A stretch of DNA of 64,000 nucleotides. It comes from an uncultured Chloroflexia bacterium. Its GTDB lineage: Bacteria; Chloroflexota; Anaerolineae; Aggregatilineales; Aggregatilineaceae. The notes under the pieces are model-generated. The model was not told the origin of the DNA. It saw nothing but the letters and a program-made list of their open reading frames with translations, and searched no databases. Of the stretch, positions 15,432 through 31,309 are shown piece after piece. The stretch spans positions 354,406 to 418,405 of the forward strand of contig CAWGXG010000001.1 of NCBI GenBank assembly GCA_963826505.1, in the 5' to 3' direction. The position numbers were made by a program, and so were the translations under genes. Position 1 is the first letter of the stretch. The number at the start of each line of letters is the position of its first letter.

Positions 15432-15848
15432 TCAGGTCAGGAACAGGCGCAGATCGCCGTCGCTATCCTCTTCGACGCGCAGGGCGGGCAGTGCTTGCTT
15501 GGCGGGGCCGTGTAGGAGGTTGCCGGACGAGTCGTAGCGCGAGCCGTGACACGGGCAGACGAACCCGCTGCCCTTCTGTTCGACGGTGCAGCCCAGGTGG
15601 GTACACACCAAACTCACTGCGGAAAAACCGTCTTCGTCGTGGATCAGCACGGCTGGGACGTCCGGCAGCAGCGTATGCGTCCCGAGCGGGTACTCCTGGG
15701 CAGCACCCAGGTCGATATCGGTTGGGGCGCTCAATTCCGCCTGAAACCCCAGGAAGCGGACCAATCCATCCAGGCTGAGCAGACCGCTCACCGCTAGCAG
15801 GGCGGTGGTGGTCATCTTCAAAACATCACGGCGGCGATATTCAGACAT
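15432..15848 (-). CDS. Rieske [2Fe-2S] protein with Tat signal (subunit of a cytochrome bc-type complex)
   Basis: RRRDVL twin-arginine motif. Rieske boxes CTHLGC and CPCHGS. Confidence 0.85.
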   Translation of the reverse strand: MSEYRRRDVLKMTTTALLAVSGLLSLDGLVRFLGFQAELSAPTDIDLGAAQEYPLGTHTLLPDVPAVLIHDEDGFSAVSLVCTHLGCTVEQKGSGFVCPCHGSRYDSSGNLLHGPAKQALPALRVEEDSDGDLRLFLT

Positions 15849-15901
15849 AAGCGCTCACATCATCCTTCGAACTGTCCCAAGTTAACGATTTCCATCAACT
15901 C

Positions 15902-17149
15902 CTAGCGTTCCACGGCATGGCATGCATGGCAATACTGCGAATTCTGCTGCTGCGGGTCCTGCTGGCATTGCGTACCCATCACCGGGCGGAAGGTGAACGT
16001 CTGACCGGTGGCTTTGCCGGTGAGCGTGTAGGTGCCGTCCGGCAGAACGCGCGTGTTCCACAGCGGCTCGCCCTGCTCGGTGGCGAGGATCACGTCGCCG
16101 ACCTGGAGCTCCACGACTGGGTTGAGAAAGGCCAGCTTGACGGCGAGCTCGTCCTCGCTGGCGATGGTGTAGGTTTGCGGCAGCTCGGTCAGCGTGCCGT
16201 GACACGTTTTGCACTGCACATATTGGATGTCGCCCATGCTGGAATGAATATCGCCGTCGCCCATGACCTCGACGCGCGTGTGGCAGTCGATGCAGTCCAG
16301 CGTCCATTCGCAGCGGGTGAACTGGGCGATCGGCTGGTAATAGTCGTGCAAGCGATCGGTGGGCGTGTCGCTGCGTGGCTCAAAGGTCATCGAGCGCAAA
16401 TCATAGTTGCCCCGGTTGTGGCACGTGTTGCACTGTGTGTACGGAATGGCGGTCGTCAGGTGGTGGATCTGACCTTCGGGCGCGCTGGTGATGTCGGGCG
16501 TGTGGCAAGCCGCGCAGCCGGTCAGACGCGCGAACGCGTCGCCATCCGGAGGTTCAGCGCCGATGTGGCAGGTGAGGCAGTTTTCGCCAAACAGGTGGAC
16601 CGATGGGTTGGACATTTGTGAGACATCAAGCGCGGCGAGTGCGGCGACACCGGTGCTCGTCGTGACGTCATCATCGGCCACAGCGTAAACGCCGAATTGG
16701 GCGGTCAGGCTGGGCTGCGCGCCGAACGTGTACAGTATATTTGCGATCGCCCCGGCGTAAGTCGCCTGGACGCTGGTCGTCACGCGCTGGATGTGATCCT
16801 GATACTCCTGTGGGCTGCCGCTGTGACAGTTGCCGCCGCCACAGGATTGTTCGACCACGGTCAGATCGGAGGGATTCGCGCCGCCGCGCAGGGTGCTGTG
16901 CGCCAGATCGGCGTTGAGCGCCAGCCGTTCGCCGCCGTGACACACCACGCAGCCAAAGGTCTCGACCGGATGCGCGGCGCTGATTTCGGGTAGATCGCCG
17001 TGACAGGTGAGGCAGTATTCGGCTTCGCCGGTCAGCGTGGGAGTCAGCGCCACCGGCCGGGTGCGCCGCGCCTCGACCCACCAGGCCAGTAGCAAGGCTC
17101 CCAACAGCAGGGCGGCAGCGAGTACGATCGAGCGGCGCGGCGTCATCAT
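15902..17149 (-). CDS. membrane-anchored multiheme c-type cytochrome (nine heme-binding motifs incl. one CX4CH)
   Basis: Eight CXXCH motifs plus CGGGNCH. N-terminal signal anchor MMTPRRSIVLAAALLLGALLLAWW. The ATGA start overlaps the cytochrome b stop. Confidence 0.8.
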   Translation of the reverse strand: MMTPRRSIVLAAALLLGALLLAWWVEARRTRPVALTPTLTGEAEYCLTCHGDLPEISAAHPVETFGCVVCHGGERLALNADLAHSTLRGGANPSDLTVVEQSCGGGNCHSGSPQEYQDHIQRVTTSVQATYAGAIANILYTFGAQPSLTAQFGVYAVADDDVTTSTGVAALAALDVSQMSNPSVHLFGENCLTCHIGAEPPDGDAFARLTGCAACHTPDITSAPEGQIHHLTTAIPYTQCNTCHNRGNYDLRSMTFEPRSDTPTDRLHDYYQPIAQFTRCEWTLDCIDCHTRVEVMGDGDIHSSMGDIQYVQCKTCHGTLTELPQTYTIASEDELAVKLAFLNPVVELQVGDVILATEQGEPLWNTRVLPDGTYTLTGKATGQTFTFRPVMGTQCQQDPQQQNSQYCHACHAVER

Positions 17150-18183
17150 GCTCCACCTGACAGCCAGGCGAGCAGCGTCAAGGCCAGCACCAGCACGCCG
17201 ATCGCGGACAGAATCAACTGCGCCAACCGGTTTGACTTGGGAAACCAGCGCCCCAGCTCGCGTTCGTCGGGCGGGGGGAGCAGGTAAGGAATAGCCGCCA
17301 GCACGGCCAGCACGGCCAGCGGAGCCAGCACGCCCCACACGAACGGATCGCCCCAGGTGAGCATGCGCTGCACCCACAGAAAAAACCACGGGGCGCGCAC
17401 GTCGCCGGAAACGGCGGAAAGCTCCGTGATCGGCGCGGCAATTGGGGCGGGGGCGAAGCTGGCCGTGAGAATCAGCGCGGCGCTGGTCATCAACATGGCG
17501 AATGCTTCGCGGCGCACCAGCTCGACGCGCGTGATCCGCGCGCGATCGGAGCGCAGCGCCGGGGGCGGCACGGCGATTCCGCCGTCACGCCGCACGCGGA
17601 ACAGGTGCCAGCCCATGATCAGCACGGCGATTAGCATCAGGCCGAAGATGTGCCAGGCGTAGAAGCGGGTCAACGTGGCAGGGCCGGGCCGCGATCCGCC
17701 CACGACAATGGCATGCAGGCTGTCGCCGATAGCGGGAATGGTCTTGAGCAGATTGGTGCCGACCACCAGCGCCCACTGAATACCCTGGTCCCAACGCAGA
17801 ACGTAACCGGTGAAATTCAGCAGAACGGCCAGCACGAACAGCGCCAGTCCTAACAGCGCGTTGAAGCGGCGCGGCGGACCGTACGCGCCGGTGAACACGA
17901 CCCGCACCAGATGAACCGCCATCACGATCATCAGGAATTGGGCCGCCCAGTAGTGCAGGTTGCGCACCAGTCCGCCCAGGGCCACGTGATAGGTGATGGT
18001 CTGGATCGAGAGCGCGGCCTGATCGGGCGTGGGCGTGTAATAGAACATCTCCAGCGCGCCCGTGACGATCAGCACCAGCACCAGAAAGACGGCGATCCCG
18101 CCCGCGCCCAGAGTGTAACGCCACCGCGCTTGTTGGGCTGGGAGAGTGGGTGGGTGCAGGTGATAGAAGAAGTTTGGGCGCAT
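17146..18183 (-). CDS. cytochrome b (b6 + subunit IV fused type) of a Rieske/cyt b complex
   Basis: Four conserved heme-ligand His in helices B and D (HYWAAQF..AVHLVRV; FYAWHIFG..GWHLF). 345 aa polytopic membrane protein. Confidence 0.8.
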   Translation of the reverse strand: MRPNFFYHLHPPTLPAQQARWRYTLGAGGIAVFLVLVLIVTGALEMFYYTPTPDQAALSIQTITYHVALGGLVRNLHYWAAQFLMIVMAVHLVRVVFTGAYGPPRRFNALLGLALFVLAVLLNFTGYVLRWDQGIQWALVVGTNLLKTIPAIGDSLHAIVVGGSRPGPATLTRFYAWHIFGLMLIAVLIMGWHLFRVRRDGGIAVPPPALRSDRARITRVELVRREAFAMLMTSAALILTASFAPAPIAAPITELSAVSGDVRAPWFFLWVQRMLTWGDPFVWGVLAPLAVLAVLAAIPYLLPPPDERELGRWFPKSNRLAQLILSAIGVLVLALTLLAWLSGGA

Positions 18184-18260
18184 GGTGACCGCGTATGGTG
18201 AACGGGGTGGTGAAGACCCCCGTCCCGTTGGAACGAGGGTCTTTTCAGGTAGTGGGTGGA

Positions 18261-19466
18261 TCAGCCCGCAGTCGGTGCTTCGACCGCCGCGCGGATGTCT
18301 TCGCGCGGTGTGGGCTGCGCCAGGGATTTCCTGGCGGCGACGGTTTCTTCATAAACCGGGAAGTAGCGTGCCACCAGACTATACACGGTGACCAGTCCGG
18401 ACACAACGCCCAACAGGATCGCCACTTCCATCCAGTGGGGGTGATAGGTCTGGCCGTCGACCGGTTTCATACCGAACCAGGTCACGTCAAAGCGGTTCAG
18501 GATCACGCCGCCCATGACCAGGAACGCGCCCAACATCGACGCCAGCCGGTTGTGCCGCACATAGTCCAGCGCGAACAGGCTGATCGGGATCATGACCCCA
18601 ATCACCAACTCGGTCCAGAACAGGACGCTGTACGTCCCGCTGTTGAACAACAGGTCTAGCTCGTTCGCGATGATCAACTCACCGAATTTCAGGACGAGAT
18701 AGAAGCCCAAAATCCAGGGCAGGAACCAGCCCAACGTCGCGAGCGTTTTGGTGCTCAGCGTGCGCCCAAACATCCAATAGCTGACCGTTGCTCCCGCGAT
18801 GACCATCGAAATCCCGGCGGCCAGCGAGCTGATCAGGAAGAAGACCGGCAGCAGCATCGAATGCCACAAAGGGTGCAGGCGGGGTGACATGATTACAAAC
18901 ATCGTGCCCAGCGAGGACTGGTGCATGGTGGACAGTGTCACGCCCACGATGACGATCGGAATGACATATTTCTTGATGGTGGGTAGCAGCCAGCTCCAAC
19001 GCGATTTTTCCAGCAGCACCGGGCTCAGCTCATATGTCAGGATCATCGAGTAGGCGGCGATGCACCAGCTCACTTCGAGCAGGGCGGAGCTGAAGTTGGG
19101 GTGGAAGAACACGTTGTAGAAGCGGTCCCAGCGCCCCAGGTCGAATAGCAAAATCACCAGCACGGAGCTGTAGCCCAGCAGCCCGGCCAGCACCGTCGGG
19201 CGAACCGCCGCGTGCAGGCTCTCGAACTGGAAGACATAGACCAGCGCGGCCAGCGTGAAGGCGCCGCCAGACAGCGCCACCGTCGCCAGGTCGAAGCTAA
19301 TCCAGATGCCCCACGGAAAAGCTTTGCTCAGGTTGGTGGTCGAGCCCAACCCGGCATACATACGATAAAGGCCGATGCCCAGGCCGAAGGCGGTGAACGC
19401 CACCAACACATAGATGAACTTCGGCATGGTACGCAGTTCGTGAGATAGTTTTCTCAGCGTAGTCAT
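18261..19466 (-). CDS. NrfD/PsrC-family quinol-interacting membrane anchor of a molybdopterin oxidoreductase
   Basis: 401-aa polytopic membrane protein with NrfD/PsrC/DmsC-like topology. Immediately downstream of the FeS subunit (4-bp overlap). Confidence 0.8.
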   Translation of the reverse strand: MTTLRKLSHELRTMPKFIYVLVAFTAFGLGIGLYRMYAGLGSTTNLSKAFPWGIWISFDLATVALSGGAFTLAALVYVFQFESLHAAVRPTVLAGLLGYSSVLVILLFDLGRWDRFYNVFFHPNFSSALLEVSWCIAAYSMILTYELSPVLLEKSRWSWLLPTIKKYVIPIVIVGVTLSTMHQSSLGTMFVIMSPRLHPLWHSMLLPVFFLISSLAAGISMVIAGATVSYWMFGRTLSTKTLATLGWFLPWILGFYLVLKFGELIIANELDLLFNSGTYSVLFWTELVIGVMIPISLFALDYVRHNRLASMLGAFLVMGGVILNRFDVTWFGMKPVDGQTYHPHWMEVAILLGVVSGLVTVYSLVARYFPVYEETVAARKSLAQPTPREDIRAAVEAPTAG

Positions 19467-20263
19467 TCGTTGTCCTCTTCGGCAGAGTGCCCGTTTTTGC
19501 CCTGGATGGCCTCTTCGTGCTCTTTGGCGGCTTCTTGCTTGAAGTGCTTAATCGTCAGGTACGCGCCCGACAGGCCAACCAGCATCGCACCGGCAACCAT
19601 AGGCGTGCCTTCGGTCACCAGCCGGTTGGAATAGGCGGGTGAGGTGGTGTCCGCCACCGGGAAGCCCAGGTCTTCAAACGGAACAGGCGATATGTACAGT
19701 GTGGCCGTGCCACCGTTTTCTTCTTCGCCGTAAACGTGTTGAATGTATTTGTCGGGCCGCGCCGCGATCAGGCGGTGCGCCAGGGCTAGCATGTCCTCGT
19801 ATTTGCCGAACTTGATGGCGCTGGTCGGGCAGGTGGCCGCGCACGCGGGCTGTCCACCTTCTTCCAGCCGCGAAAAACACATGTCACATTTGACGACCAG
19901 TGGGAAACGCTCGTTCCATTCGTAATTGGGAACCTTGAACGGACAGGCGTACATGCAGTAACGGCAGCCGATACAAATGTCCTTGTCGTATTCCACGACG
20001 CCGCTTTCGTTGCGAGTCAGCGCGCTGACGGTGCAGGCCGAGACGCACGAAGGGTCTTTGCAGTGCATGCAGTGATAGGGCGCGGTGTAGCGGGACAGGT
20101 CCGGATAGGTTCCCGTGATCCCGGTCTCTTTAATCCAAATGCGCGTGCTGTCCATCGGCACTTCGTTTTGGACGCTGCACGCCACCATGCACGTGCGACA
20201 GTCGATGCACAGTGTGGCGTCAATCAAAAAACCGTAACGCGGAGTTGATGCGTGTTCAGCCAC
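19463..20263 (-). CDS. 4Fe-4S ferredoxin-type subunit (PsrB/PhsB/DmsB-like) with C-terminal TM helix
   Basis: Four Cys clusters (CIDCRTCMVAC, CMHCKDPSCVSAC, CIGCRYCMYACP, CDMCFSRL..CAATCP). GTG start 7 nt after the catalytic-subunit stop. Confidence 0.8.
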   Translation of the reverse strand: MAEHASTPRYGFLIDATLCIDCRTCMVACSVQNEVPMDSTRIWIKETGITGTYPDLSRYTAPYHCMHCKDPSCVSACTVSALTRNESGVVEYDKDICIGCRYCMYACPFKVPNYEWNERFPLVVKCDMCFSRLEEGGQPACAATCPTSAIKFGKYEDMLALAHRLIAARPDKYIQHVYGEEENGGTATLYISPVPFEDLGFPVADTTSPAYSNRLVTEGTPMVAGAMLVGLSGAYLTIKHFKQEAAKEHEEAIQGKNGHSAEEDNE

Positions 20264-20267
20264 GATG

Positions 20268-22439
20268 TTATGCCTTTCTGACGGTGACGAACGTCTGACT
20301 GAGTGCCTGGCTGCCGCTGACCGGATCGGTATAAGTGACGTGCAGCACCGAATCGTTCGCGCCAACGCCGAAGGCTGTTGTCAGGCCCTTCGAGAGATGG
20401 CCGTAGCCGGGAGTCAGATAGACACAGTCGGGGCGAATGCCGGGGGTGACGTGCAGGCGGGTGTTCACAGTGCCAATGTCGCTGGTGACGGACACCCATT
20501 CGCCGTCTTTGAATTCGCGTTCGGCGGCGACGGTTTCGTTCATCCACAGGCGCGGCTCGTCCGCGTATTTGTGCAGCAGTTGGTTATTTTGGGACGCGAA
20601 CTGGGTCGCCTGGGCCACTTTGCCGGTGAGCAGATAGAACTGTCCTTGCGGCGGGGCGGGCGGCTCCTGCCAGATCGGCACGCCGGGGAAGCCCACTCTG
20701 TCGAGCGTGTCGGAGAAAATTTCGACTTTGCCGCTGGGCGTATTCCATGTGAAGCCGGGGTCTTCAGCCGCCGGGAGCGATGCGTAGCCCCTGGCGCGGA
20801 CATCTTCCAGGCTGACGCCGAGCGGCGCCAACTGCTGGCGGATGTAGTCTTCCTCGTCTTCATACTGGAAGTAATCACCCAAACCCAGACGCTCGCCCAA
20901 CTGCTTGTAAATCCAGAGCGCCGAGCGGGCCTCGCCCTGCGGCTCGATCACCGGCTGGCGGAGGAACGCGCGGTCCCCGACCGGCAGCACCGGATCATAG
21001 CGTTCGAGGTAAGAAGCTTCCGGCAGGACGACGTCCGAGAACCACGCCGTATCGTTCAGGAAAATGTCGATCGTGGCGATGAAGTCCATCTTTTCGAAGG
21101 CGGCCAGCGTTTTGGCGCGATCGGGCAGGGACATCACCGGGTTCTGACGGGAGATAAACCAGCCGTGCGCCTGGTAGGGCTGGCCGCTGACGATGTTGTC
21201 GCGCAGCTCCTGGAAAACGCCCAGCTTGAGCGGGACGACCGGGTATTTGTAGGGCACGCCGTCCAGCCGCGCCGCTGAGGCACGCGGGTAAGCGGGTTGG
21301 GGTGGTGCGCCTAATGCGCCGCCTGATTCCCCGCCTGAAGCCTTCAGCGTGACGTTCCAGTTACCGACCAGGGCATTCAGGATGGTGATCGCGCGCTGCG
21401 TCTGGAATGAATTCACAAAGTTGGACGTGCGCCAGCCGTTATGGGCCAGGGCATGGGGGGCAGCCGCCGCGAATTCGCGCGCGATGCGCCGGATGGTGTC
21501 CGCCGGGATTTGGGTGATGGCAGCCGCCCATTCGGGTGTGTACGTCTGGATCTCCTGCGCGAGCTGGTCAAAACCGATCGTGTAGCTCTCCACAAAGGCG
21601 TGATCGTAGAGATCCTCGGTGGTGATGACGTTCAACAGCGCCAGATGGAAAGCCAGATCGGTGCCGGGTGTGATCGGCAGCCATTCGGCGGCTTTGGCGG
21701 CGGTCTTGGTGAAGCGCGGATCGAGATACACGACTTTGACGTCGCGCGCGATAGCGTTACTCAAAGCGGACGTCTCGGAGGTGGAGATCGCCTCCATCAG
21801 ATTGCGGCCCGTCAGGATGATGTATTGCAGATCGTCGTCGTAGATGCGATCGGGCTCTTCCATGCCGTACGTCATCAGGTTGGCGACGATCATGGCGTTG
21901 AAGCACAGGCTGCGCTGCGTGCCGTAATTGGGCGAGCCGTAGGCATAAAGCAGGTTCTCAAACTGGACCTGACTCAGGTTATGCGTGGACGAAAAGACCA
22001 TCGCCTCCGGCCCATACGTGTTCTTGATGGCCAGCATCTGGCCGGCGGTCACGTCCAGCGCTTCGTCCCACGACGCTTTGCGGAACTTGCCTTCGCCGCG
22101 ATTCCCGGCGCGGATGAGCGGCGTCAGGACGCGGTCGGGATCGTAGGTATTCATCAGGCCAGACTGCCCGCGCACGCACAGGTGGCCCTTGGAATGGGGA
22201 TGTTCGGGGTTGCCGTCCAGCTTGACGACGCGCCCCTGTTCGACTCTGGCGATCAAGCCGCAGCGCCAGACACACATCTCGCACGTGCTGGGGATGAAAC
22301 CGTCCCCGCGTGCGTTCAAGAGATTGGCATCCCGGGCGGCCTGTGCCACGGCGGGCGGAAGAAACTCCGATACCGCCAACGTGCCCGCGGCAGCAGCGCT
22401 CGCCTTCAGGAAATTGCGCCTTGTCAACGATAGGGTCAT
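20268..22439 (-). CDS. molybdopterin (bis-MGD) oxidoreductase catalytic subunit, Psr/Phs/Sre-like, Tat-exported
   Basis: RRNFLKASAAAAG Tat signal. N-terminal 4Fe-4S motif CEMCVWRCG..C. 723 aa, fitting polysulfide/thiosulfate reductase size. Confidence 0.85.
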   Translation of the reverse strand: MTLSLTRRNFLKASAAAAGTLAVSEFLPPAVAQAARDANLLNARGDGFIPSTCEMCVWRCGLIARVEQGRVVKLDGNPEHPHSKGHLCVRGQSGLMNTYDPDRVLTPLIRAGNRGEGKFRKASWDEALDVTAGQMLAIKNTYGPEAMVFSSTHNLSQVQFENLLYAYGSPNYGTQRSLCFNAMIVANLMTYGMEEPDRIYDDDLQYIILTGRNLMEAISTSETSALSNAIARDVKVVYLDPRFTKTAAKAAEWLPITPGTDLAFHLALLNVITTEDLYDHAFVESYTIGFDQLAQEIQTYTPEWAAAITQIPADTIRRIAREFAAAAPHALAHNGWRTSNFVNSFQTQRAITILNALVGNWNVTLKASGGESGGALGAPPQPAYPRASAARLDGVPYKYPVVPLKLGVFQELRDNIVSGQPYQAHGWFISRQNPVMSLPDRAKTLAAFEKMDFIATIDIFLNDTAWFSDVVLPEASYLERYDPVLPVGDRAFLRQPVIEPQGEARSALWIYKQLGERLGLGDYFQYEDEEDYIRQQLAPLGVSLEDVRARGYASLPAAEDPGFTWNTPSGKVEIFSDTLDRVGFPGVPIWQEPPAPPQGQFYLLTGKVAQATQFASQNNQLLHKYADEPRLWMNETVAAEREFKDGEWVSVTSDIGTVNTRLHVTPGIRPDCVYLTPGYGHLSKGLTTAFGVGANDSVLHVTYTDPVSGSQALSQTFVTVRKA

Positions 22440-22492
22440 GTTGAACTCCGGTCCTCAAAGGTTAGTGTTGCCCAAACTCCGCACCTGACAGG

Positions 22493-23041
22493 CTATTCCC
22501 GCTCTTTACGCTGCAAGCCAGCACGGTCGATCAGATAGAACAGGAAGAGCGCCATAAGCGCAAAACAGAGGACCATCAGAAACGGGCTGAGATCCCACAG
22601 GTCGGGCAGCACGACGCTGCCGTAGTTGGACAGGGACGAGATTTTGGGAAACACCTGCTGGTATGTCAGACCGTAGATTACGGCCCCTACGAAGAAACCG
22701 CCCAAACCGGGGATCAGGTAATCTAGCTTGCCTTCGCCACTGCCTGCGGCACACGTCCCTGGGCAGAAGCCGCTGAGGGCCATCCCCGCGCCGAAAATCA
22801 GGCCACCGATCAGGTTGCCGGTGATATAGGTGGCGGGCACGTTGGGGAACGTGATCAGGCCCAGGCCGCGCAGGGCGTACAAACCGGACATGGACACGAC
22901 CAGCGCGGTCATCATGAATTTGAGCACGGCCATATCGGTGAAGCGGAACACGTTGACGATCTTGTGATACTTCGTCAGGCCCGCCTTGTTGAGCGAAAAC
23001 CCGAAGGCGACACCCAGCACCAACGCGATGATGTTATCCAT
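22493..23041 (-). CDS. YeeE/YedE (sulfur-transport, DUF395) family membrane protein
   Basis: Conserved GFCPG..CAAGSG cysteine motif. 182 aa. Paired with a second half-size homologue. Confidence 0.7.
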   Translation of the reverse strand: MDNIIALVLGVAFGFSLNKAGLTKYHKIVNVFRFTDMAVLKFMMTALVVSMSGLYALRGLGLITFPNVPATYITGNLIGGLIFGAGMALSGFCPGTCAAGSGEGKLDYLIPGLGGFFVGAVIYGLTYQQVFPKISSLSNYGSVVLPDLWDLSPFLMVLCFALMALFLFYLIDRAGLQRKERE

Positions 23042-23043
23042 GC

Positions 23044-23589
23044 CTAATATCTCCTGCGATACACAACGAGCGATGTCACGATGCCCGCCGCAAACATGCC
23101 GCCAATGAACACGTACGCCGAAGGCGCGAGCAGCATCCCGCCCGAAATGGCGAGTCCGCTCGTGCAGCCGCCCGCGATGCCCGCCGCGTATTCAAGGATC
23201 ACCGCGCCGGTGAAGGCGAGCGCCCAGCGTTTCCAGACCTGTGGGCCGAAGATGCTTTTCCACTGCTCATCGCTGTTGGCCGAACCTTTTTTGCCCCACT
23301 GCAGGGTGCCGCTGGTGGCGGCCCCGAGCATGCCCCCGAAGAACATTCCAACCACCAGGATCACGCCCCAGGATATGCCGGGCGGCATGATGTAGTTGAA
23401 ATACAAATTGTTGAAGGTGTCCGGGACGACAGCCTGACCGACTTTTCCGGCGATTCGCTCAAAGGCTCCCGACGCACCCAGCAGATTATTGCTCAGCCAG
23501 ACGGCCAGCACGCCCACGACCCCGAGCAAGGCTCCGGCGATATAGGGCGACCACTCGTCGCGGCGAATGTAATTGATGACGGTTTTCAT
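23044..23589 (-). CDS. YeeE/YedE (sulfur-transport) family membrane protein, second paralogue
   Basis: AGGCTSG motif. Start placed at MKTVINYI; alternative upstream ATGs at 23601 and 23631. Confidence 0.65.
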   Translation of the reverse strand: MKTVINYIRRDEWSPYIAGALLGVVGVLAVWLSNNLLGASGAFERIAGKVGQAVVPDTFNNLYFNYIMPPGISWGVILVVGMFFGGMLGAATSGTLQWGKKGSANSDEQWKSIFGPQVWKRWALAFTGAVILEYAAGIAGGCTSGLAISGGMLLAPSAYVFIGGMFAAGIVTSLVVYRRRY

Positions 23590-23593
23590 GGCG

Positions 23594-24448
23594 CTACCCA
23601 TCCAGTTTGTCGTGTGGGACAACGGCATCAATCAGGCTCAGCACTTTGTCGATCTGAGGATTGGCGATAAGTTTCTTCAACGCGTGACGCGTTTGGACTT
23701 TCAGACCGCTCAGGGCGGGCAGCATGGCGACGACGTCTTCGGGATATTCGCCCGCGACCTGGCGGGTTTTGCCGCTCAGCTTATTCCTGCGCAGCTCGTT
23801 CACCACGACGAACGCGCCACCGCCCACGACCAGCAGCTCGATGATGATGATCAGGGCGATGTTGCCCCAGTTGACCGGGCGCTCGCCCAACACGATCTCG
23901 TTGTAGCGCTGGGTGTAATCGACTACGTTGGGATCGTCCACCGACAATTTAGCGGTGAAAGGTGAAGCCGCGACCGGTACTGCGGCTGACGACGTGGTGT
24001 TCGTCGTGGAGGTTGTGGTCGTGGTCGATGTGTCGGAGGTTGAACCCGCACCGCCGCTGCTCGCGCTGGCCAGATCGATGCCCAGGGCGTCAGCGTAGAC
24101 CTGAGCGCGCTTCTGGAGATCGTTGGGGTGGCACTGCGCGCAGCCCGCGTCGATATCCGAAAGGGGCGACACCATCCCGGCGTGGGCAGCATTTATCTCT
24201 GTTGCCTGCTGGTTGCCACCATGACAGATATAACAGAAATCGCCGAACGCGTGCGACTTGTGCCAGCCGGTGCCGTCATTGTTGACCGGGTCCTGGCCCT
24301 GCACTTCGTGACAGTTCTTGCAAGACGAGGCTTGCGAGCCGCACTGGGCTTCTGACGTGTGGGCCGTCATCAGCCACAGGGTGGCCCCGATGACGAGCAG
24401 CACCAGACCGCCCAACAACCAAAGAAACGGTGTCTTTCGGTATGGCAT
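23594..24448 (-). CDS. membrane-anchored triheme c-type cytochrome with Ser/Thr-rich linker and second TM helix
   Basis: Three CXXCH motifs (CKNCHE, CYICHG, CAQCHP). Perfect SD GAGGAGG before the ATG. TSDTSTTTTTSTTNTTSS linker. Confidence 0.7.
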   Translation of the reverse strand: MPYRKTPFLWLLGGLVLLVIGATLWLMTAHTSEAQCGSQASSCKNCHEVQGQDPVNNDGTGWHKSHAFGDFCYICHGGNQQATEINAAHAGMVSPLSDIDAGCAQCHPNDLQKRAQVYADALGIDLASASSGGAGSTSDTSTTTTTSTTNTTSSAAVPVAASPFTAKLSVDDPNVVDYTQRYNEIVLGERPVNWGNIALIIIIELLVVGGGAFVVVNELRRNKLSGKTRQVAGEYPEDVVAMLPALSGLKVQTRHALKKLIANPQIDKVLSLIDAVVPHDKLDG

Positions 24449-24490
24449 GTATTCCTCCTCAAAGGAATGGTGTGTGGACCGCGCCACGAA

Positions 24491-24829
24491 CTAAGTGCCA
24501 GTTTCTTCGATCAAACTGGCGCGATGGACAATCCGATCGCGCAGGACAGATCTCAATATATTGAGTGCCTCGATCAGGCGAGCGTCAGCTAACTGGTATT
24601 GGACGTTCTGCCCTTGCCGGACCGCAATCACCAGCCCTCGATCGCGCAGAATCTTGAGATGGCGCGAAGTCGTGGACTGAGGGATCTCGAGCACCTCGAC
24701 CAGTTCCGCGACATTGCACGGTTTTTCGTCCAGGGCGTACAGAATCAGAATCCGGGTTGAATCTGACAGGGCAAAACACAGATCGGCTTCCATGAGTGAG
24801 ATTTCGCGTGCGAGCTCACGTGTGTTCAT
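24491..24829 (-). CDS. ArsR/SmtB family transcriptional regulator
   Basis: Winged-HTH STRILILYAL..CNVAELVEVLEIPQSTTSRHLKIL. Single Cys where arsenite-sensing ArsR has CVC, so probably not an As(III) sensor. Confidence 0.85.
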   Translation of the reverse strand: MNTRELAREISLMEADLCFALSDSTRILILYALDEKPCNVAELVEVLEIPQSTTSRHLKILRDRGLVIAVRQGQNVQYQLADARLIEALNILRSVLRDRIVHRASLIEETGT

Positions 24830-24850
24830 GTGGTTTCTCCCTGGTGTAAT

Positions 24851-24872
24851 ACATATCCGGATAATAGGATAT
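24851..24872. promoter_or_regulatory. inverted repeat ATATCC-N8-GGATAT just upstream of arsR-like gene (candidate ArsR-family operator)
   Basis: Palindrome seen directly in the sequence, 22 bp upstream of the regulator start codon. Confidence 0.3.
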
Positions 24873-25041
24873 ATTGATGAGTGGACATTCTAGAAGTGGG
24901 GAACGAGTCGGGTCAGTGACATAGCTCATGGCAGTTAATGAAATTTGTCACAATCGCGAACGAATGGTGCACGCATTGATCAGGGGGTCAGGAGTGGGGC
25001 GGAAATGGAAGGGGGCAGCGCACCCTATCCGACAGGGATTT

Positions 25042-25671
25042 TCAAGCCAGGGCGGCTAACTCGGACACGAGGCTGATGGGGGTCATCACCTGATAATAGG
25101 GGCCTTCAGCGCAGGAGCGGCACAGCGTTTCACCGTTGAGGACCACCTCGCGCTCGTTGCTGATTTCCTCCCCGCACCGCGCGCACACCGCGCGCAGACC
25201 GGGCTGGCTGATCAGCTCGGCCAGGGGCAGTGTCACGCACACGTCCTGCACGTTGAACAATTCCGCGAACGGCATGATCTGATAGCCTTCCAACTGCGCG
25301 TGCCAGCGGCTGCTGGCCTCCGGCATTATCTCCACGGCGCGCTGGCGCGAGAAGTCCGTCGGCCAGATACGCACGGCGCAGTGGGTTTGTGTGTCGACGA
25401 TCGTCGCGGCGATTTTGCCGAAATCCATCAGGCGCAGCGTGCGGTGGCCCAGCGTGCAGCCCGTAGCGACCGACAGCCCGTCGACGAAACAGCCGTCCGT
25501 CTCGACAAACGTGAACAGCCGCTTGTCGGTCTGCGGGAGGGGCAGACCAAACAGGTGGGCCGCGTACATCCCCATGCGTACCCCTAGGACCTGGCGCGGG
25601 CACAGGTGGCTGTGCAGTGCCGCGGATTGGTCCAGCAGGCTTTTCAGATCGGGTTCGATATAGGCCAGCAT
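25042..25671 (-). CDS. FmdE-family protein with C-terminal CxxC..CxxC zinc ribbon
   Basis: HLCPRQVLGVRMG signature of the FmdE domain. Terminal CARCGEEI..CRSC. SD AAAGGAAG before ATG 25671. Confidence 0.6.
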   Translation of the reverse strand: MLAYIEPDLKSLLDQSAALHSHLCPRQVLGVRMGMYAAHLFGLPLPQTDKRLFTFVETDGCFVDGLSVATGCTLGHRTLRLMDFGKIAATIVDTQTHCAVRIWPTDFSRQRAVEIMPEASSRWHAQLEGYQIMPFAELFNVQDVCVTLPLAELISQPGLRAVCARCGEEISNEREVVLNGETLCRSCAEGPYYQVMTPISLVSELAALA

Positions 25672-25994
25672 GATGAACTTCCTTTGATGTGAGCTTCTGA
25701 GGCTGGGGCTGCTCACATAGATGGCCAGCGGCGGATGACTTGCCGAGCGCCGTGGCGGGTCGGGTTGATTTCCATTACAGACGGTATCTCGCCCACCACG
25801 CCAGCGCCACATCCTGACACAGACAGTATGATAGTGCGTTCGTCATTCGCGCGAACGTAGTGATAATTGTCACAAGTTGGACATCCGAGTGTCAAGTGAT
25901 CGCCGTGCCGGGGAGTGAAAATCGCATGTCAGTCGATCGGGGCAGTAGCCGCGGTTCTTCCATACCGGATGGGAATTTGCCGGACATTCGTTGT

Positions 25995-26134: not shown

Positions 26135-27129
26135 ATGAAGAGGGGTATTCGACTTCTAACAGGACCGGCGCTGGTCCTTCTTTTATCTGGCTGTTCAAAC
26201 CAACAAAACTTCCTCGACCCCGCCTCACCTACTTCTCAAAAAGAAGCCAATCTGACCTGGATCGTATTGGGCATGTCCCTGGTCGTGTTCCTGCTGGTGG
26301 AGGGACTGCTCGTTGTCAACATTCTGCGCTTTCGCCATAACGAGCATGTTCACGAGCTGTCCCGCTCCCGCGAAATCATGTTGGAGGTCATTTGGACGGG
26401 CATTCCGTTGATCCTGGTGACAATCCTGTTCTTCCTCACCGTGCGCACCATGAACGCCGTCTCCGCGCCTGAACCTGCTCAAAGTGACGTGAACGTGCAT
26501 GTGGTGGCGCACCTGTGGTGGTGGGAGTTCGAATATCCGGACCTGGGCATCGATACCGCCGACGAACTGCACATCCCGGTTAACACAAACGTCCAGATCA
26601 CGCTGGATTCGGCGGATGTCGTGCACAGTTTTTGGGTGCCCGCGTTGGCGGGCAAAACGGATGCGGTCCCCGGGGTGAGCAACAGCATGTGGCTGCACGG
26701 CGACCAGATCGGCATGTATGAGGGACAGTGCGCGGAATTCTGCGGGCTGAACCACGCGGCGATGCGCTTCAAGGTGTTCGTAGATTCGCCAAGACGATTT
26801 CGATGCCTGGGTCAACAACCAGCAGCAGCCCCCGCCCGATCCGCAAACCGATCTTGAGAAAACAGGTTACGACCTCGTGGCGCACGGCATGTGCGCGGGC
26901 TGCCATACCATCGGGGATCACCCGGCGCCGCAGCCGATCGGCCCCAATCTGACGCACCTTTATTCTCGTTCGTCCTTTGCGGGGGCCACGTATCGATCTC
27001 AACGACGCTAATTTGCGTCGGTGGATTCAGGATTCGGGCGCGATGAAACCCGGGAACCTGATGCAAGACATGCGCGTCAAGCCCGAGGATGTTGACGCGG
27101 TGATGGCCTATCTTTCGACGCTGAAATGA
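26135..27129 (+). pseudogene. ctaC: cytochrome c oxidase subunit II fused to cytochrome c (caa3-type CtaC/CaaB), two 1-nt insertions (~26791, ~26991)
   Basis: CuA site HSFWVP..CAEFCGLNHAAM. Frame shifts to DDFDAWVNN..CAGCHTIG, then to IDLNDANLRRWIQD..KPGNLMQ. Both breaks are repaired by removing one base. Confidence 0.8.
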
Positions 27130-27141
27130 ACTAGGCAGGTT

Positions 27142-29366
27142 ATGACTACTCAACCACAGGTTCAAAGCGGCCCGCTGCCTCGCGCGCATGCGCTAGGCGA
27201 AAGCGGCGTGTTAAGCTGGCTGATGACGGTCGATCACAAGCGTATCGGGATCATGTACATCGTCTCGGCCTTCGTGTTTTTTGTGATCGGCGGCGCGCTC
27301 GCGCTGCTGATGCGCCTTCAGCTCGCCCAGCCCAACGGGAAAATTCTGGATAACGCCACCTACGACCAGGTCTTCACCATGCACGGCACGACCATGATCT
27401 TCCTGGTCGTGATGCCGCTCTCGGTCGGGCTGGCGAATTATATCGTTCCGCTGATGATCGGCGCGCGCGATATGGCGTTTCCCAAGGTGAACGCGCTGGG
27501 ATTCTGGCTGTTTGGCTTTGGGGCGCTATTTCTCTACAGCAGTTTTCTGTTCGGCGGCGCGCCGGACAAAGGTTGGTTCAGCTATGCGCCGATGACGGAG
27601 CTGCCCTATTCGCCGGGCAGCGGCATGGATTTCTGGGCGCTGTCGATCCTGGTGCTGACGGCGTCGACGACGGTTTCGTCGATCAACTTCATCGTCACGG
27701 TGGCCCAACTGCGCGCGCCGGGCATGACGTTGGAGCGCATCCCACTGTTTGCCTGGATGATGGTCGTGACGTCGGTGTTATCGGTTTTCGCGTTTCCTTC
27801 GCTGGCTGTGTCGGCGGGTTTGCTGTTGACCGACCGGCAGATAGGCACGCACTTTTTCGACGTGGCGAACGGGGGCAGCGCGCTGCTGTGGCAGCATCTG
27901 TTCTGGTTCTTCGGCCACCCGGAAGTGTATATCCTGATCCTGCCCGCCTTCGGGATCATCTCGGAGGTCGTGCCGGTGTTCTCCGGCAAGCCGCTGTTCG
28001 GCGCGAAGACGGTGATCCTGTCGGGCATGCTGATCGGCATCCTGGGCTTTACGGTCTGGGCGCACCACATGTTCGCGGTGGGCATGCCGGACGTGTCGAT
28101 GCTGTTCTTCTCGGCGGACAGCTTTCTGATCGGCGTGCCGACCGGCATCAAGATCTTCGCGTGGCTGGCGACCATGTGGGGCGGACAGACTGCGCCTCAA
28201 AACGCCGATGCTGTTCGCCATCGGGCATATTGCGCTGTTCACGATCGGCGGGCTGAGCGGAATCATGCAGGCCGTGATCCCGATTGACTGGCAGGTGACG
28301 GACAGCTATTTCATCGTCGCGCACCTGCATTACGTGCTGTTTGGCGGGGCGCTGTTCGGGCTGTTCGCCGGGTTTTATTACTGGTTCCCCAAGTTCAGCG
28401 GGCGCATGCTGGACGAACGGATCGGCAAGTGGCATTTCTGGACGATGTTCATCGGCATGAACGTGCTGTATTTCCCGATGCACATCCTGGGCCTTATGGG
28501 CATGCCGCGCCGCATCTACACCTACAGCCCCGGATTCGGGGTGGGGCGATCTGAATCTGCTGTCGTCGATCGGCGGCTTCGTCGTCGCGGTGTCGGTGCT
28601 GATTTTCCTGTACAACCTGGCGGTGTCGCTGCGCCAACCGGCCACCGCCGAAGACGATCCCTGGGATGCCAACACGTTGGAATGGGGCACCAGCTCGCCG
28701 CCTCCGGCCTACAATTTCGCCGAGATCCCGGAAGTCAGCAGCCCGCGCCCGCTGTGGGATCGGAAACATGAGGCACCAGCCGAGGAGCGCACGGTCATGA
28801 ACCCCAGCCTGCCCTCGCGCAGAAACCCGGATGACCTTGCGCGCACGACGCTGCTGGTGGTGCTCGCGTCCGAATCGACGCTGTTCAGCACGCTGCTGAT
28901 GGCTTACCTGTACCTGCGCACGGGCGCGGGTCAGGCGGCATTCGTCCAGGTGGCGGGGTCGGACTGGCTGATCGCCGCTGCCAACACGGGTGTGCTGCTG
29001 CTCAGCGCATGGGTGGTGGGGCAGGCGGCGACTGCCATCCGGAACGGGGACCGGCGCGGACTGGTCAGCCGGTTGGTGATCAGGCTGGCGCTGGGACTGG
29101 TCTTCGTGGGCGGGCAGGTCTTCGAGTTCAACCGGTCAGGTATGGCGCCCGACGATCCGGCTTTTGGCGGCGTGTATTTCGCGCTAATGGGCTTTCACGC
29201 ACTGCACGTGTTGGCGGGTATCGTAATCCTGAGTGTGAACGCGGCCCGCGCCTGGCTGGGTGATTTCACGGCGCGGCGGCACACGGCGGTGAAAGCCGGG
29301 GCGTGGTTCTGGTATTACGTCACGGGCGTGTGGGTCGTGCTGTTCGTGGGGCTGTACCTCCTATGA
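27142..29366 (+). pseudogene. ctaD: cytochrome c oxidase subunit I fused with subunit III (caa3-type CaaA-like), two 1-nt insertions (~28189, ~28541)
   Basis: Canonical CoxI motifs (WFFGHPEVY, HHMF). WGGQ|LRLKTPMLF and PGFG|WGDLNLL are restored by deleting one base each. The C-terminal 170 aa are CoxIII-like (FYFALMGFHALHV). Confidence 0.85.
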
Positions 29367-30196
29367 TCATACTCGCACACACGGATGTGGCGCTCAGTTG
29401 GGAATGGGCGCCCAGCATTCTGATCGGGTTGGCGCTGCTGACGGTTGGCTATGCGCTGGCGGTGGGTCCGCTGCGCCGCCGCTACGCGTGGGGGCCGCCG
29501 GTCGAAGGCTGGCGACAGGCCGCGTTTCATCTGGGTACCCTGGCCGTATTTATCGCGCTGGTCAGCCCGCTCGATGGGTTGGGCGACGAATATCTGTTCA
29601 GCGCGCACATGAGCCAGCACATGCTGCTGATGTTTGTCGGACCGCCCTTGTGGCTGCTGGGCACGCCCGCCTGGCTGGTCGACCGGTTGGTAATGCCGGA
29701 GCGCGCGCGGCGCGTGCTCGGGTTGGCGATTCAACCGGTGGCCGCCTTTGTGGTGTTCAACGTCACGATGTGGCTGTGGCACTGGCCGCGCTTCTACGAT
29801 CTGGCGCTGGAATACGAGAACCTGCATATCATGGAGCACTTGATGTTCATGGCTGCGGCGGTGATCGGCTGGTGGCCGGTCGTGGGCGCGTGGCACGGTG
29901 CGAACGTACCCATCTCCAATTTGGCGCGCGTGTTGTATCTGCTGCCGATGATTGGCGCGTGCAGCGCCCTGGCGGCCCTGATCACGCTCTCGCCGGACGT
30001 GCTGTACCCCTTTTATGCTGCACACTCACAGCCGTGGGGATTTACACCGCAGATCGATCAGCAGGTCGGCGGGCTGGTCATGTGGTTGGGAGGCGATATG
30101 ATTTTTATGACGGCGTTCATCTTCGTGATGAGGCGCGTGCTTACACCATCGTCCACATTGGCGGCTGAGCTGCTGCCGGGGGAGCGTGTGCCATGA
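29363..30196 (+). CDS. ctaG: caa3-type cytochrome oxidase assembly factor CtaG-like membrane protein
   Basis: Seven-TM protein with the SAHMSQHMLLM..PPLWLLGTP motif typical of Bacillus-type CtaG. ATGA overlap with the upstream stop. Confidence 0.55.
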   Translation: MIILAHTDVALSWEWAPSILIGLALLTVGYALAVGPLRRRYAWGPPVEGWRQAAFHLGTLAVFIALVSPLDGLGDEYLFSAHMSQHMLLMFVGPPLWLLGTPAWLVDRLVMPERARRVLGLAIQPVAAFVVFNVTMWLWHWPRFYDLALEYENLHIMEHLMFMAAAVIGWWPVVGAWHGANVPISNLARVLYLLPMIGACSALAALITLSPDVLYPFYAAHSQPWGFTPQIDQQVGGLVMWLGGDMIFMTAFIFVMRRVLTPSSTLAAELLPGERVP

Positions 30197-30986: not shown

Positions 30987-30999
30987 GGAGGGGCACACG

Positions 31000-31243: not shown

Positions 31244-31309
31244 GTGCGGGCCCCGACCTCGCTGTCGCTGCCCGACCTGAGTCCGCTGCGGGCCAGGGCG
31301 GCACAGTGG

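Follow-up and report, generated by a model that had tools for sequence, protein, structure and literature searches.

Several described respiratory systems resemble parts of the locus reported here, a cluster of ten genes on the minus strand of a 64,000-nucleotide stretch of DNA (hereafter the window) from an uncultured Chloroflexia bacterium of the Aggregatilineaceae (assembly GCA_963826505.1, contig CAWGXG010000001.1). PsrABC of Thermus thermophilus (PDB 2VPW-2VPZ) shares with it a catalytic subunit that matches over its full length, a twin-arginine translocation (Tat) signal, the FS0 domain, the cysteine ligand, an iron-sulfur (FeS) subunit with four clusters and an NrfD-family subunit. Unlike in Thermus, the FeS subunit encoded here ends in a hydrophobic tail and resembles HmcB/HybA, the NrfD subunit, of 9-10 helices, resembles HybB/HmcC, and the same cluster adds a repressor, a triheme cytochrome and a split YeeE channel, with a Rieske/cytochrome b complex following. 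This complex finds its nearest counterpart in ExtM-N-O-P-Q-S of Geobacter sulfurreducens (GSU2930-2935, within extHIJKLMNOPQS), which we take to be the complex called Cbc6. Both contain a Rieske protein, a b6-like cytochrome b, a subunit-IV-like protein and a multiheme cytochrome, and a rhodanese gene beside the cluster in some Anaerolineae loci recalls ExtH. In contrast, the Geobacter cluster has no molybdenum (Mo) enzyme, whereas our locus has no ExtN, ExtS, ExtKL, ExtI or ExtJ, carries ExtP and ExtQ counterparts fused into one protein, has nine hemes instead of twelve, and scores below the equivalog cut-off in every case.

The concept of a periplasmic terminal enzyme fed by a Rieske/cytochrome b complex is shared with Campylobacter (Nap and Tor via Qcr) and Wolinella (clade II NosZ), in which menaquinol-oxidising Rieske/cytochrome b complexes supply periplasmic enzymes through c-type cytochromes, sometimes in addition to a quinol dehydrogenase of their own. 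There, unlike here, the bc complex serves general housekeeping and is not encoded beside the reductase. Anammox bacteria have dedicated Rieske/cytochrome b complexes with extra catalytic subunits. To our knowledge, neither the Rieske/cytochrome b-dependent reductases nor the anammox systems include a Psr/Phs/Srr-type enzyme or a YeeE channel. Known YeeE/TsuA channels (Spirochaeta thermophila, 6LEO; TsuA-TsuB, 8J4C) have the PF04143 fold, the central Cys and the GGCxSG-type Cys of the other half in common with our locus, but they are single proteins of 330-350 aa, whereas two proteins of ~180 aa are encoded here, C-half first, with no YeeD/TusA partner, and in most relatives the codon of the central Cys is an apparent selenocysteine codon. 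The first part of the locus resembles Qrc, alternative complex III and Hmc/Nhc in combining a cytochrome c, a four-cluster FeS protein and a ten-helix NrfD protein, to which Qrc and alternative complex III, like our locus, add a MopB-family protein (PMC8076601). The FeS and NrfD subunits match the HmcB/HmcC and QrcC/QrcD models, but at scores far under the cut-offs. QrcB and ActB have lost the Mo cofactor, whereas the ligand, the FS0 domain and both cofactor domains are intact in the catalytic subunit described here (MoA), which looks catalytically competent; its intact Mo ligands rule out an identity with alternative complex III. DsrMKJOP, finally, unites an anchored triheme cytochrome (DsrJ), a periplasmic FeS protein (DsrO), an NrfD-type protein (DsrP) and a b-type cytochrome in one sulfur unit, and quinone cycling between its two membrane subunits has been proposed (PMC8076601). 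Unlike DsrMKJOP, our locus encodes a triheme cytochrome with no similarity to DsrJ, a cytochrome b of the bc1/b6f and not the NarI type together with a Rieske protein, and no DsrK.

Each building block has close known relatives, and the novelty lies in their conserved pairing with a split YeeE. The association of a Psr-type Mo enzyme with its own Rieske/cytochrome b/nine-heme complex and a split YeeE is apparently undescribed, as an earlier model-generated note on this DNA (the earlier note) had held: no published account was found in the full-text literature, whose coverage excludes most subscription journals. We tentatively read the locus as a conserved two-module respiratory unit that would act on a chalcogen (sulfur or selenium) compound at the outer face of the cytoplasmic membrane. 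The coupling of its modules, whether physical or functional, the direction of electron flow and the substrate are what we infer.

Gene content and conservation of the locus

Gene calls were checked with Pfam and NCBIfam profiles, and starts were refined by orthologue comparison and by reading the gene junctions. Positions 15432-24829 of the minus strand hold ten intact open reading frames (ORFs), every assignment being backed by Pfam/NCBIfam. Their strand, content and order agree with the earlier note: an ArsR-family regulator, a triheme cytochrome c, two YeeE/YedE-family proteins, the Mo catalytic subunit, FeS and NrfD subunits, a cytochrome b, a nine-heme cytochrome c and a Rieske protein. 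From ArsR to Rieske, the intergenic gaps measure 42, 4, 2, 53, 4, -4, 77, -4 and 53 nt, so that the largest is 77 nt. As for the extent, given before as 15432-24872, the first coordinate stands, whereas the last lies 43 nt past the ArsR start codon, within the promoter/operator region.

A cytochrome b scan of one genome per GTDB species yielded 388 relatives, of which the best 80 loci were used. These best 80 of 388 are all from Anaerolineae; their cytochrome b is 61-79% identical to that of the window, with identities between loci down to 57%. The ten window proteins were compared by tblastn with these loci and with two pairs fetched via MoA, and gene order was counted in the 56 non-redundant loci whose flanks reach at least 7 kb upstream and at least 2.2 kb downstream of cytochrome b. 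All ten genes occur in order in 43/56 loci. Only the ArsR match is missing in four, the Rieske gene in three, and the YeeE pair or the first four genes in three; a further three hold a different paralogue belonging to a conventional bc locus. The genes for MoA, FeS and NrfD stand immediately upstream of those for cytochrome b and the nine-heme cytochrome in 53 of the 56. This synteny in related genomes bears out the arrangement first proposed from a single sequence, and the arrangement is not a matter of chance.

Among the 120 database clusters listed for MoA, 119 are non-identical to it, at 75-94% identity, and all named clusters among those listed come from metagenome-assembled genomes (MAGs) of Anaerolineae/Chloroflexota. 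A protein search of a plasmid collection with MoA returned a best match of 35% identity, under generic names. Database labels are generic as well, the nine-heme cytochrome being a “hypothetical protein” and MoA a “molybdopterin-dependent oxidoreductase”.

The molybdenum enzyme and its quinone module

MoA (20268-22439, minus strand; 723 aa) is a predicted Tat-exported catalytic subunit of the molybdenum/tungsten bis-pyranopterin guanine dinucleotide type. A twin-arginine signal (PF10518) spans residues 5-23, the FS0 four-cysteine domain (PF04879) residues 49-99, and PF00384 and PF01568 are also matched. The four cysteines Cys53/56/60/88 are kept in 57/57 orthologues. Against the PDB, MoA matches Thermus thermophilus PsrA (2vpw) over the full length at 418 bits, while the next match reaches 215 and ArrA 137 bits. 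Its SLC179 motif aligns with SLC of 2vpw, in which we take the aligned Cys to be the Mo ligand, and Cys179 is kept in 57/58 orthologues.

Among NCBIfam models, PhsA (NF012032) scores highest with 586.6 bits, below its cut-off of 694, and the orthologue in L025 scores similarly (589 bits). DmsA/YnfE (263), formate dehydrogenase alpha (259), ArrA (159), TtrA (82) and NarG (59 bits) follow, and QrcB reaches 156 bits against a cut-off of 440. MoA should not be named PhsA because its score is under the equivalog cut-off. On the score gaps in hidden Markov model and PDB searches, and not on a tree, we assign MoA to the PsrA/PhsA/SrrA lineage of the dimethyl sulfoxide (DMSO) reductase (MopB) superfamily. 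The sulfur-compound type that the earlier note proposed for the catalytic subunit is thereby supported, within a sulfur/selenium lineage, and a place in a non-sulfur clade is not borne out, with 587 bits for PhsA against at most 263 for any nitrate, DMSO, arsenate, tetrathionate or formate model. Published trees leave PsrA, PhsA, SrrA and archaeal SreA unseparated (PMC10100899), and tetrathionate is reduced by a Psr homologue (PMC12949373). Because polysulfide, thiosulfate, selenite and sulfur reductases are not resolved in such trees, and because a Psr homologue reduces tetrathionate, phylogeny is unable to name the substrate of MoA.

The FeS subunit (19463-20263, minus strand; PF13247, four [4Fe-4S] clusters) begins with a GTG codon 4 nt past the MoA stop codon, has a hydrophobic C-terminal segment and carries no signal peptide of its own. 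The NrfD-family quinone-interacting membrane subunit (18261-19466, minus strand; PF03916) overlaps it by ATGA and has 9-10 transmembrane helices by hydropathy. In profile libraries with no dedicated PsrB or PsrC model, the FeS subunit is best matched by HmcB (227 bits) and HybA (210), against 122 for DmsB, 120 for NrfC and 100 for TtrB; NrfD is best matched by HybB (267) and HmcC (245), with QrcD at 146 and DsrP far below HybB/HmcC. A PDB sequence search with NrfD at E <= 0.001, Thermus PsrC included, gave no match. The description “PsrABC-like” is apt for the A subunit but not obviously so for B and C, whose best models are HmcB/HybA and HybB/HmcC.

Diverged versions of the two subunits in relatives are likewise best matched by Hyb/Hmc-type models. 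Across the 43 complete loci, FeS and NrfD co-vary tightly in pairwise identity (Spearman 0.9) and form two deep types with 39-48% identity between them. MoA, cytochrome b, the nine-heme cytochrome and Rieske show no such split, their median identities within and between FeS/NrfD types being 72, 68, 66 and 58%. Since the split is confined to FeS/NrfD, we conclude that this quinone-module pair has been swapped as a cassette inside a stable cluster, always for a Hyb/Hmc-like one. Because the neighbourhood of MoA and cytochrome b outlasted this exchange, their adjacency appears to be under selection.

The Rieske/cytochrome b/nine-heme module

Cytochrome b (17146-18183, minus strand; PF00033, PF13631) has seven transmembrane helices, with a four-helix b6-like core fused to a subunit-IV/ExtQ-like part. 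His77, His91, His178 and His193 align with the heme ligands of cytochrome b6 and are kept in 78/78 orthologues; Gly occupies the position of the heme-cn Cys. The motif of the quinol-oxidising (Qo) site is APWF, a variant of PEWY with no acidic residue, which is invariant in 78/78 orthologues and also present in the housekeeping paralogue. The ExtP model scores 214.9 bits (cut-off 290) and the ExtQ model 51.4 bits (cut-off 150) on residues 227-341.

The nine-heme cytochrome c (15902-17149, minus strand; 415 aa), which overlaps cytochrome b by ATGA, has an N-terminal membrane anchor and takes the place of the monoheme cytochrome c1/f or diheme c as third redox subunit, a replacement also seen in the Geobacter Ext and anammox variants. 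Eight CxxCH motifs and one C104-x4-C109H motif, as well as Cys281 and Cys396, are conserved in all orthologues aligned (73-77 per position). It is ExtM-like, at 148.9 bits against a cut-off of 800, and a PDB sequence search gave no match. An AlphaFold2 model from a 28-sequence alignment reached a mean predicted local distance difference test (pLDDT) of 45 and a predicted template modelling score (pTM) of 0.33, and was left unused for fold search.

The Rieske [2Fe-2S] protein (15432-15848, minus strand) is of the bc1/b6f type (PF00355, 45 bits; TIGR01416, 63 bits) and has a twin-arginine N-terminus. In its CTHLGC and CPCHGS boxes, Cys82/His84/Cys87 and Cys98/Cys100/His101, the disulfide cysteines included, are kept in at least 64/65 orthologues. 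An arsenite-oxidase-type Rieske protein was considered and rejected, as TIGR02694 scores only 32 bits and the boxes are bc-type.

By these matches, ExtP, ExtQ and ExtM are the best named relatives, though the window proteins are no members of their families, and the trio is related to Geobacter ExtO, ExtP+Q and ExtM. Among the window ORFs scanned, none corresponds to extH, extI, extJ, extKL, extN or extS. Anaerolineae possess a second, conventional bc locus with a fusion of monoheme cytochrome c and cytochrome b (567 aa), a Rieske protein and a diheme cytochrome c (L073, 9326-12478; also L072 and L081), which has the APWF motif in common with the Ext-like complex. A Brevefilum MAG holds both types (L073 and L084), so the Ext-like complex is additional and not the housekeeping one.

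Repressor, triheme cytochrome and split YeeE channel

The first gene of module 1 (24491-24829, minus strand; 112 aa) encodes an ArsR/SmtB-family repressor (PF01022, 61.6 bits; NF033788, 78 bits). Its Cys18 is invariant in 52/52 orthologues, while Cys38 varies. The BigR model gives only 38.8 bits, and for a weak NCBIfam match named “TsoR” a literature search found nothing on that name.

The triheme cytochrome c gene lies at 23594-24448 (minus strand) if translation begins, as is probable, at Met14 of the longest ORF, which extends to 24487; this residue is Met in 49/56 orthologues. The protein has three CxxCH motifs and no Pfam/NCBIfam family above cut-off. It comprises an N-terminal signal/anchor, a Ser/Thr-rich linker of 30 residues, a transmembrane helix (210-228) and, on the cytoplasmic side, a conserved tail of ~65 aa that matches no family, and appears to be tethered to the membrane. 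The Ser/Thr tether is reminiscent of membrane-tethered shuttle cytochromes. His76, His79 and His102 are invariant, as is Cys49, two residues past the probable signal-peptidase site and seven before the first CxxCH; Met105 is found in 54/59 orthologues. His/Cys-ligated hemes occur in DsrJ, TsdA and SoxA. This residue inventory would allow a His/Cys-ligated heme, and Cys49 is a candidate for such a ligand or for a persulfide carrier. The invariant extra Cys brings to mind the His/Cys heme of DsrJ, but a relationship to DsrJ was rejected, with no match even at E = 10, and the likeness lies in the ligand inventory only.

The following two genes had been described as YeeE/YedE paralogues. The family assignment stands and the paralogy does not, as they encode complementary halves, ~180 aa each, of one YeeE fold in permuted order. 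The C-terminal half comes first (23044-23589, minus strand; longest ORF to 23631) and covers positions 167-309 of PF04143, and the N-terminal half (22493-23041, minus strand) covers positions 10-155. TsuA models with cut-offs of 400 and 645 bits reach 36 and 24 bits, respectively. The C-half contains a GGC156TSG motif whose Cys156 is kept in 57/57 orthologues, and Cys93 of the N-half aligns with the central Cys91 of Spirochaeta thermophila YeeE (PDB 6leo). A YeeD/TusA partner gene is absent from the cluster, the gaps of which, at 77 nt or less, are too small for any TusA-like ORF.

The codon of Cys93 (22763-22765, minus strand) is replaced by an in-frame TGA in 43 related loci (e.g. L007, ~5291-5293). 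The TGA versions have a conserved CGCCG-loop-CGGCG hairpin 15 nt after the TGA, which is degraded in the Cys versions. The N-half thus looks like a selenocysteine/cysteine pair with the motif G-[YF]-U-P-G-T-C. YeeE/YedE selenoproteins are already found in reviews; the motif given there, however, is GUxSG, similar to the GGCTSG site of the other half.

Transcription units and regulatory signals

The calls of promoters, terminators and operators given below are sequence patterns obtained with crude criteria, and the counts are approximate. According to the earlier note, the ten genes form one co-transcribed operon. Their contiguity is confirmed, but a single unit is overstated in view of the junction between NrfD and cytochrome b. 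A hairpin followed by a T-run is found in this gap in 44/68 relatives, against 3/51 for ArsR-cytochrome c, 4/58 for YeeE-MoA, 3/66 for MoA-FeS and 2/66 for nine-heme cytochrome-Rieske. A -10-like hexamer ends 4-12 nt before the start codon of cytochrome b in 25/77 loci (controls: MoA 2/48, YeeE N-half 0/33), and a Shine-Dalgarno-like motif precedes this start codon in only 3/77 (controls: MoA 46/48, YeeE N-half 33/33). The contrast with the controls is large and suggests a terminator behind NrfD and, as the usual state in relatives, two adjacent units, one from ArsR to NrfD and a leaderless-type one of cytochrome b, nine-heme cytochrome and Rieske, in places with FmdE. Short tandem repeats occur just 5' of cytochrome b in some loci, as GTTACGG-type heptamers (L003, L059) or TTTATCC/CATCCTT units (L007, L069, L075, L084).

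In the window, the consensus scan found a hairpin with T-run in none of the intergenic gaps. The NrfD-cytochrome b gap does contain a 14-bp GC-rich hairpin (18213-18243) on folding, and the 79-nt stretch consisting of the gap and 2 nt of the NrfD stop codon has a minimum free energy of -26.5 kcal/mol (z = -2.9). The hairpin is kept in L085, the closest relative fetched (Aggregatilineaceae; MoA 94% identical), with no T-run behind it. Cytochrome b of the window has neither a Shine-Dalgarno motif nor a recognisable -10 box, and L085 also has no recognisable promoter there. As the hairpin has no T-run and cytochrome b no recognisable promoter, read-through from NrfD into cytochrome b is possible in the window.

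Upstream of ArsR, an operator-like 8-6-8 repeat of the TATATGCG-N6-CGCATATA type is present in 33/49 relatives, and such an ArsR-type repeat occurs in 0/60 NrfD-cytochrome b gaps and 0/66 coding controls. The window has a related 6-8-6 form, the inverted repeat ATATCC-N8-GGATAT (24853-24872, minus strand), which separates the -10-like box from the ribosome-binding site of ArsR; it was read from the sequence, an inverted-repeat search not having reported it at the minimum length used. The promoter-like site itself (CTGACC-18-TAGAAT, 24887-24916, minus strand) matches 9/12 consensus positions and is placed in accordance with the promoter/operator layout of relatives. A CRP-type site (TGTGA-N6-TCACA) matches at least 9/10 positions upstream of ArsR in 24/49 loci, while controls never exceed 8, and it is absent from the NrfD-cytochrome b gaps of relatives. 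In relatives L007-L083, the ~120 nt upstream of ArsR combine a CRP site over the -35 region, a TATTAT -10 box and an inverted-repeat operator of 20-22 bp. The window match is 8/10 only and lies further upstream (24937-24952). A Crp-family regulator gene is found near the cluster in 13 loci. The two modules carry different regulatory signals, and the term “ten-gene operon” overstates the case for the family as a whole and is at best tentative for the window.

Possible function and direction of electron flow

By their motifs, export signals and anchors, the Mo enzyme, the FeS subunit, both multiheme cytochromes and the Rieske cluster are located at the outer surface of the membrane, and two membrane components, NrfD and cytochrome b, are quinone-reactive by motif. 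Module 1, from ArsR to NrfD, would be expressed from its own promoter with an ArsR-type operator and comprises the repressor, the tethered triheme cytochrome, the split YeeE and a Mo enzyme seated on a Hyb/Hmc-type quinone module. Module 2 (cytochrome b, nine-heme cytochrome and Rieske) would be an Ext/Cbc6-like menaquinol:multiheme-cytochrome oxidoreductase, in which electrons taken from menaquinol in a Q-cycle charge the nine-heme subunit. From there, the substrate-induced triheme cytochrome may relay electrons to the FeS chain and the Mo site, where the substrate would be reduced, and NrfD would connect the enzyme to the quinone pool directly as well. The YeeE pair might provide the passage through the membrane for the sulfur or selenium compound, be it substrate or product; in the case of tetrathionate, the product thiosulfate would also be a known substrate of YeeE/TsuA channels.

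The potential of a menaquinol-type Rieske centre lies well above those of the polysulfide/sulfide and thiosulfate/sulfite+sulfide couples, and a menaquinol-oxidising Rieske/cytochrome b complex is therefore unable to feed a polysulfide or thiosulfate reductase. The proposal of a thiosulfate/polysulfide-type reductase with its own bc complex is not supported on these thermodynamic grounds. If the modules act in series, it follows that either the substrate has a higher potential, as tetrathionate and selenite do, or the Mo enzyme works as a dehydrogenase.

Between the two, we lean towards an inducible, outward-facing chalcogen reductase, at a level of confidence that remains low, and regard a chain from a donor through quinone to the bc complex as the less probable. 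Our preference has three reasons. The members of the lineage are reductases, which applies to all characterised PsrA/PhsA/SrrA/aSreA members named in two studies (PMC10100899; PMC12949373). The triheme cytochrome shares its place and its regulation with the Mo enzyme instead of module 2, which is what one would expect of a reductase-specific adaptor. Lastly, the Geobacter homologues ExtO/P/Q/M belong to a cluster implicated in selenite/tellurite reduction, which includes the rhodanese ExtH (PMC5877670). FeS subunits of the HmcB/QrcC type are known partners of multiheme cytochromes (PMC8076601).

A number of observations weigh against a reductase fed by module 2. Two quinol-oxidising entries, NrfD and bc, are redundant. 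The characterised Hyb/Hmc/Qrc-type FeS/NrfD pairs reduce menaquinone (PMC8076601; PMC13059093), and by analogy this likeness would fit the opposite direction better. In one locus (L080), cytochrome b and the nine-heme cytochrome have no Mo genes upstream, so module 2 can occur alone, and in 3-4 loci no Rieske gene follows the nine-heme cytochrome. In many relatives, module 2 has its own, apparently constitutive promoter of leaderless type with no ArsR operator or CRP-like site, and judged from these motifs the modules are not obviously co-regulated. Tetrathionate and selenite are, moreover, scarcer than sulfide in the source habitats.

The strongest competitor, which we consider rather unlikely yet worth keeping in mind, reverses the flow. 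The Mo enzyme would be a dehydrogenase of reduced sulfur, in the simplest case from sulfide to polysulfide, and would reduce menaquinone via the HybA/HybB-like pair; the Rieske/cytochrome b complex would reoxidise the quinol, and the nine-heme and triheme cytochromes would hand the electrons on to an enzyme encoded elsewhere, either a terminal oxidase or an N-oxide reductase. Import of sulfane sulfur or thiosulfate would fall to the YeeE pair, and ArsR would sense sulfur species. Every component is then non-redundant, a more parsimonious use of the parts than the reductive chain. Sulfide is plentiful in the source habitats, and in this single genome a cytochrome c oxidase operon stands next to the cluster. 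The combination of an ArsR repressor with a half-size YeeE/YedE also recalls BigR-type sulfide-detoxification operons, in which an ArsR-family repressor goes with half-size YeeE/YedE proteins, the BigR model score being the 38.8 bits given above. The best matches of the FeS and NrfD subunits, to HybA/HybB, HmcB/HmcC and QrcD, are to menaquinone-reducing or bidirectional systems (PMC8076601), NrfD has no detectable sequence match to Thermus PsrC, and a reverse-acting Psr has been proposed for some Campylobacterota (PMC6896113). On the other hand, no characterised PsrA/PhsA/SrrA member is a dehydrogenase (PMC10100899), the gene of the triheme cytochrome stands with those of the Mo enzyme instead of the bc module, a terminal acceptor is absent from the conserved unit, and the oxidase adjacency is unconserved, with a frameshifted COX1.

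The two modules could instead be uncoupled neighbours, module 1 being a self-sufficient quinol-linked Psr/Phs-type reductase that has an accessory cytochrome and module 2 a general menaquinol:multiheme oxidoreductase, for instance for extracellular or periplasmic acceptors. Their adjacency would then stem from ancestry, with no direct exchange of electrons. The terminator-like hairpins between NrfD and cytochrome b (44/68), the -10 boxes with leaderless-type starts (25/77) and the differing regulatory motifs would be accounted for, as would L080 and the Geobacter Ext cluster, in which the bc-type module occurs with no Mo enzyme; PsrABC-type enzymes, in addition, do not need a bc complex. We nevertheless find this improbable. 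The same-orientation adjacency persists in 53/56 loci though other flanks have changed (FmdE alone recurs widely), it outlasts the FeS/NrfD cassette swap between MoA and cytochrome b, and both the window and L085 have no recognisable cytochrome b promoter.

At the other extreme, and in our view still less probable, both modules might form one supercomplex with three redox termini, namely the Mo site, the c-hemes and two quinone sites (NrfD; Qo/Qi of cytochrome b), with local quinone cycling. Should this be true, energy might be conserved from the conversion of a low-potential sulfur compound (polysulfide or thiosulfate), or membrane potential might drive it, and the selenocysteine-bearing split YeeE would be a covalent relay of sulfane sulfur or selenium across the membrane, a respiratory type undescribed so far.

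A substrate other than a chalcogen compound (arsenate/arsenite, an N- or S-oxide, nitrate or another oxyanion), with the “sulfur” reading an annotation artefact, is very unlikely. It would suit the ArsR family of the regulator, the MoA score under the PhsA equivalog cut-off (587 vs 694) and the notoriously plastic substrate range of the MopB superfamily, but PhsA, at 587 bits, stands far above the models for Arr, Ttr, Dms, Nap and Nar (59-263 bits), among solved structures Thermus PsrA leads by far, the cluster includes a conserved YeeE/TsuA channel whose Cys/Sec is essential, and some loci have rhodanese neighbours. Hardly credible is a reading that the earlier note had named as one that would refute its proposal, in which the bc genes serve the adjacent caa3-type oxidase as complex III and neighbour the Mo genes by accident. 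A divergent COX2-COX1-COX3-CtaG block does lie 1.3 kb upstream of the ArsR start, but an oxidase occurs in fewer than 3 of about 80 loci, L085 has the same flanks with no oxidase, COX1 is split by a frameshift and Anaerolineae hold a separate conventional bc locus.

Flanking genes

Downstream, the cluster is bordered by a convergent ABC-permease gene. Upstream, a same-strand gene for a protein with an FmdE domain and a zinc ribbon (25042-25812; PF02663, PF01258) follows after 212 nt, and then a divergent cytochrome oxidase block. FmdE is the sole flanking gene that recurs widely (37 loci), upstream of the cluster here and after Rieske in most relatives, and its product may have a role in the maturation of the Mo/W enzyme. 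Next in frequency come regulator-type ORFs (13-26 loci), among them helix-turn-helix-type and Crp-like ones, and a MobA-like gene (11 loci). In two loci with gene tables, genes for multi-domain rhodaneses of 545 and 579 aa adjoin the cluster (L001, 17221-18858; L003, 1747-3486), and L001 also has a second ArsR-type regulator and a YgaP-like membrane protein. The window contains none of the three, that is, no rhodanese, no second ArsR-type regulator and no YgaP-like protein.

The oxidase block (26135-31710) consists of COX2, COX1, COX3, CtaG and a COX3-like gene. The flanks of L085 match those of the window, with an ABC transporter and a dihydroxy-acid dehydratase on one side and FmdE, a DeoC aldolase, an aldehyde dehydrogenase and a ROK kinase on the other, but in L085 DeoC stands directly beside FmdE. 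The block in the window has therefore either been inserted in this genome or been retained specifically by it. An oxidase as conserved partner is ruled out by its rare recurrence and its absence from L085, and the bc genes go with the Mo genes, as the earlier note had supposed. COX1 is frameshifted near 28208-28287, where an ORF covering profile positions 1-304 overlaps one in another frame covering 308-415, and the COX3 part begins in yet another frame at 28590. The break reflects either a decaying insertion or assembly indels.

Elsewhere in the window, an aldehyde dehydrogenase gene (3019-4492) is broken into two ORFs that overlap in different frames and cover profile positions 1-193 and 209-461, and a hydantoinase-B fragment (59067-60140) appears partial. 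Frameshifts are not rare in the window, yet none falls within the ten-gene cluster.

Implications

Anaerolineae rank with the most abundant bacteria of sediments, groundwater, soils and anaerobic digesters, and their respiration is largely unknown. The locus is among the most conserved respiratory gene sets of this class and joins blocks that have been studied apart, namely a Psr-type Mo enzyme, a Hyb/Hmc-type quinone module, an Ext-type Rieske/cytochrome b complex and a YeeE channel. If the two modules cooperate, it would offer a testable handle on sulfur or selenium cycling by Chloroflexota and add a new member to the small set of Rieske/cytochrome b complexes dedicated to one catalytic partner. 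If they are independent, the locus would still provide a clear set of annotation markers for these genomes.

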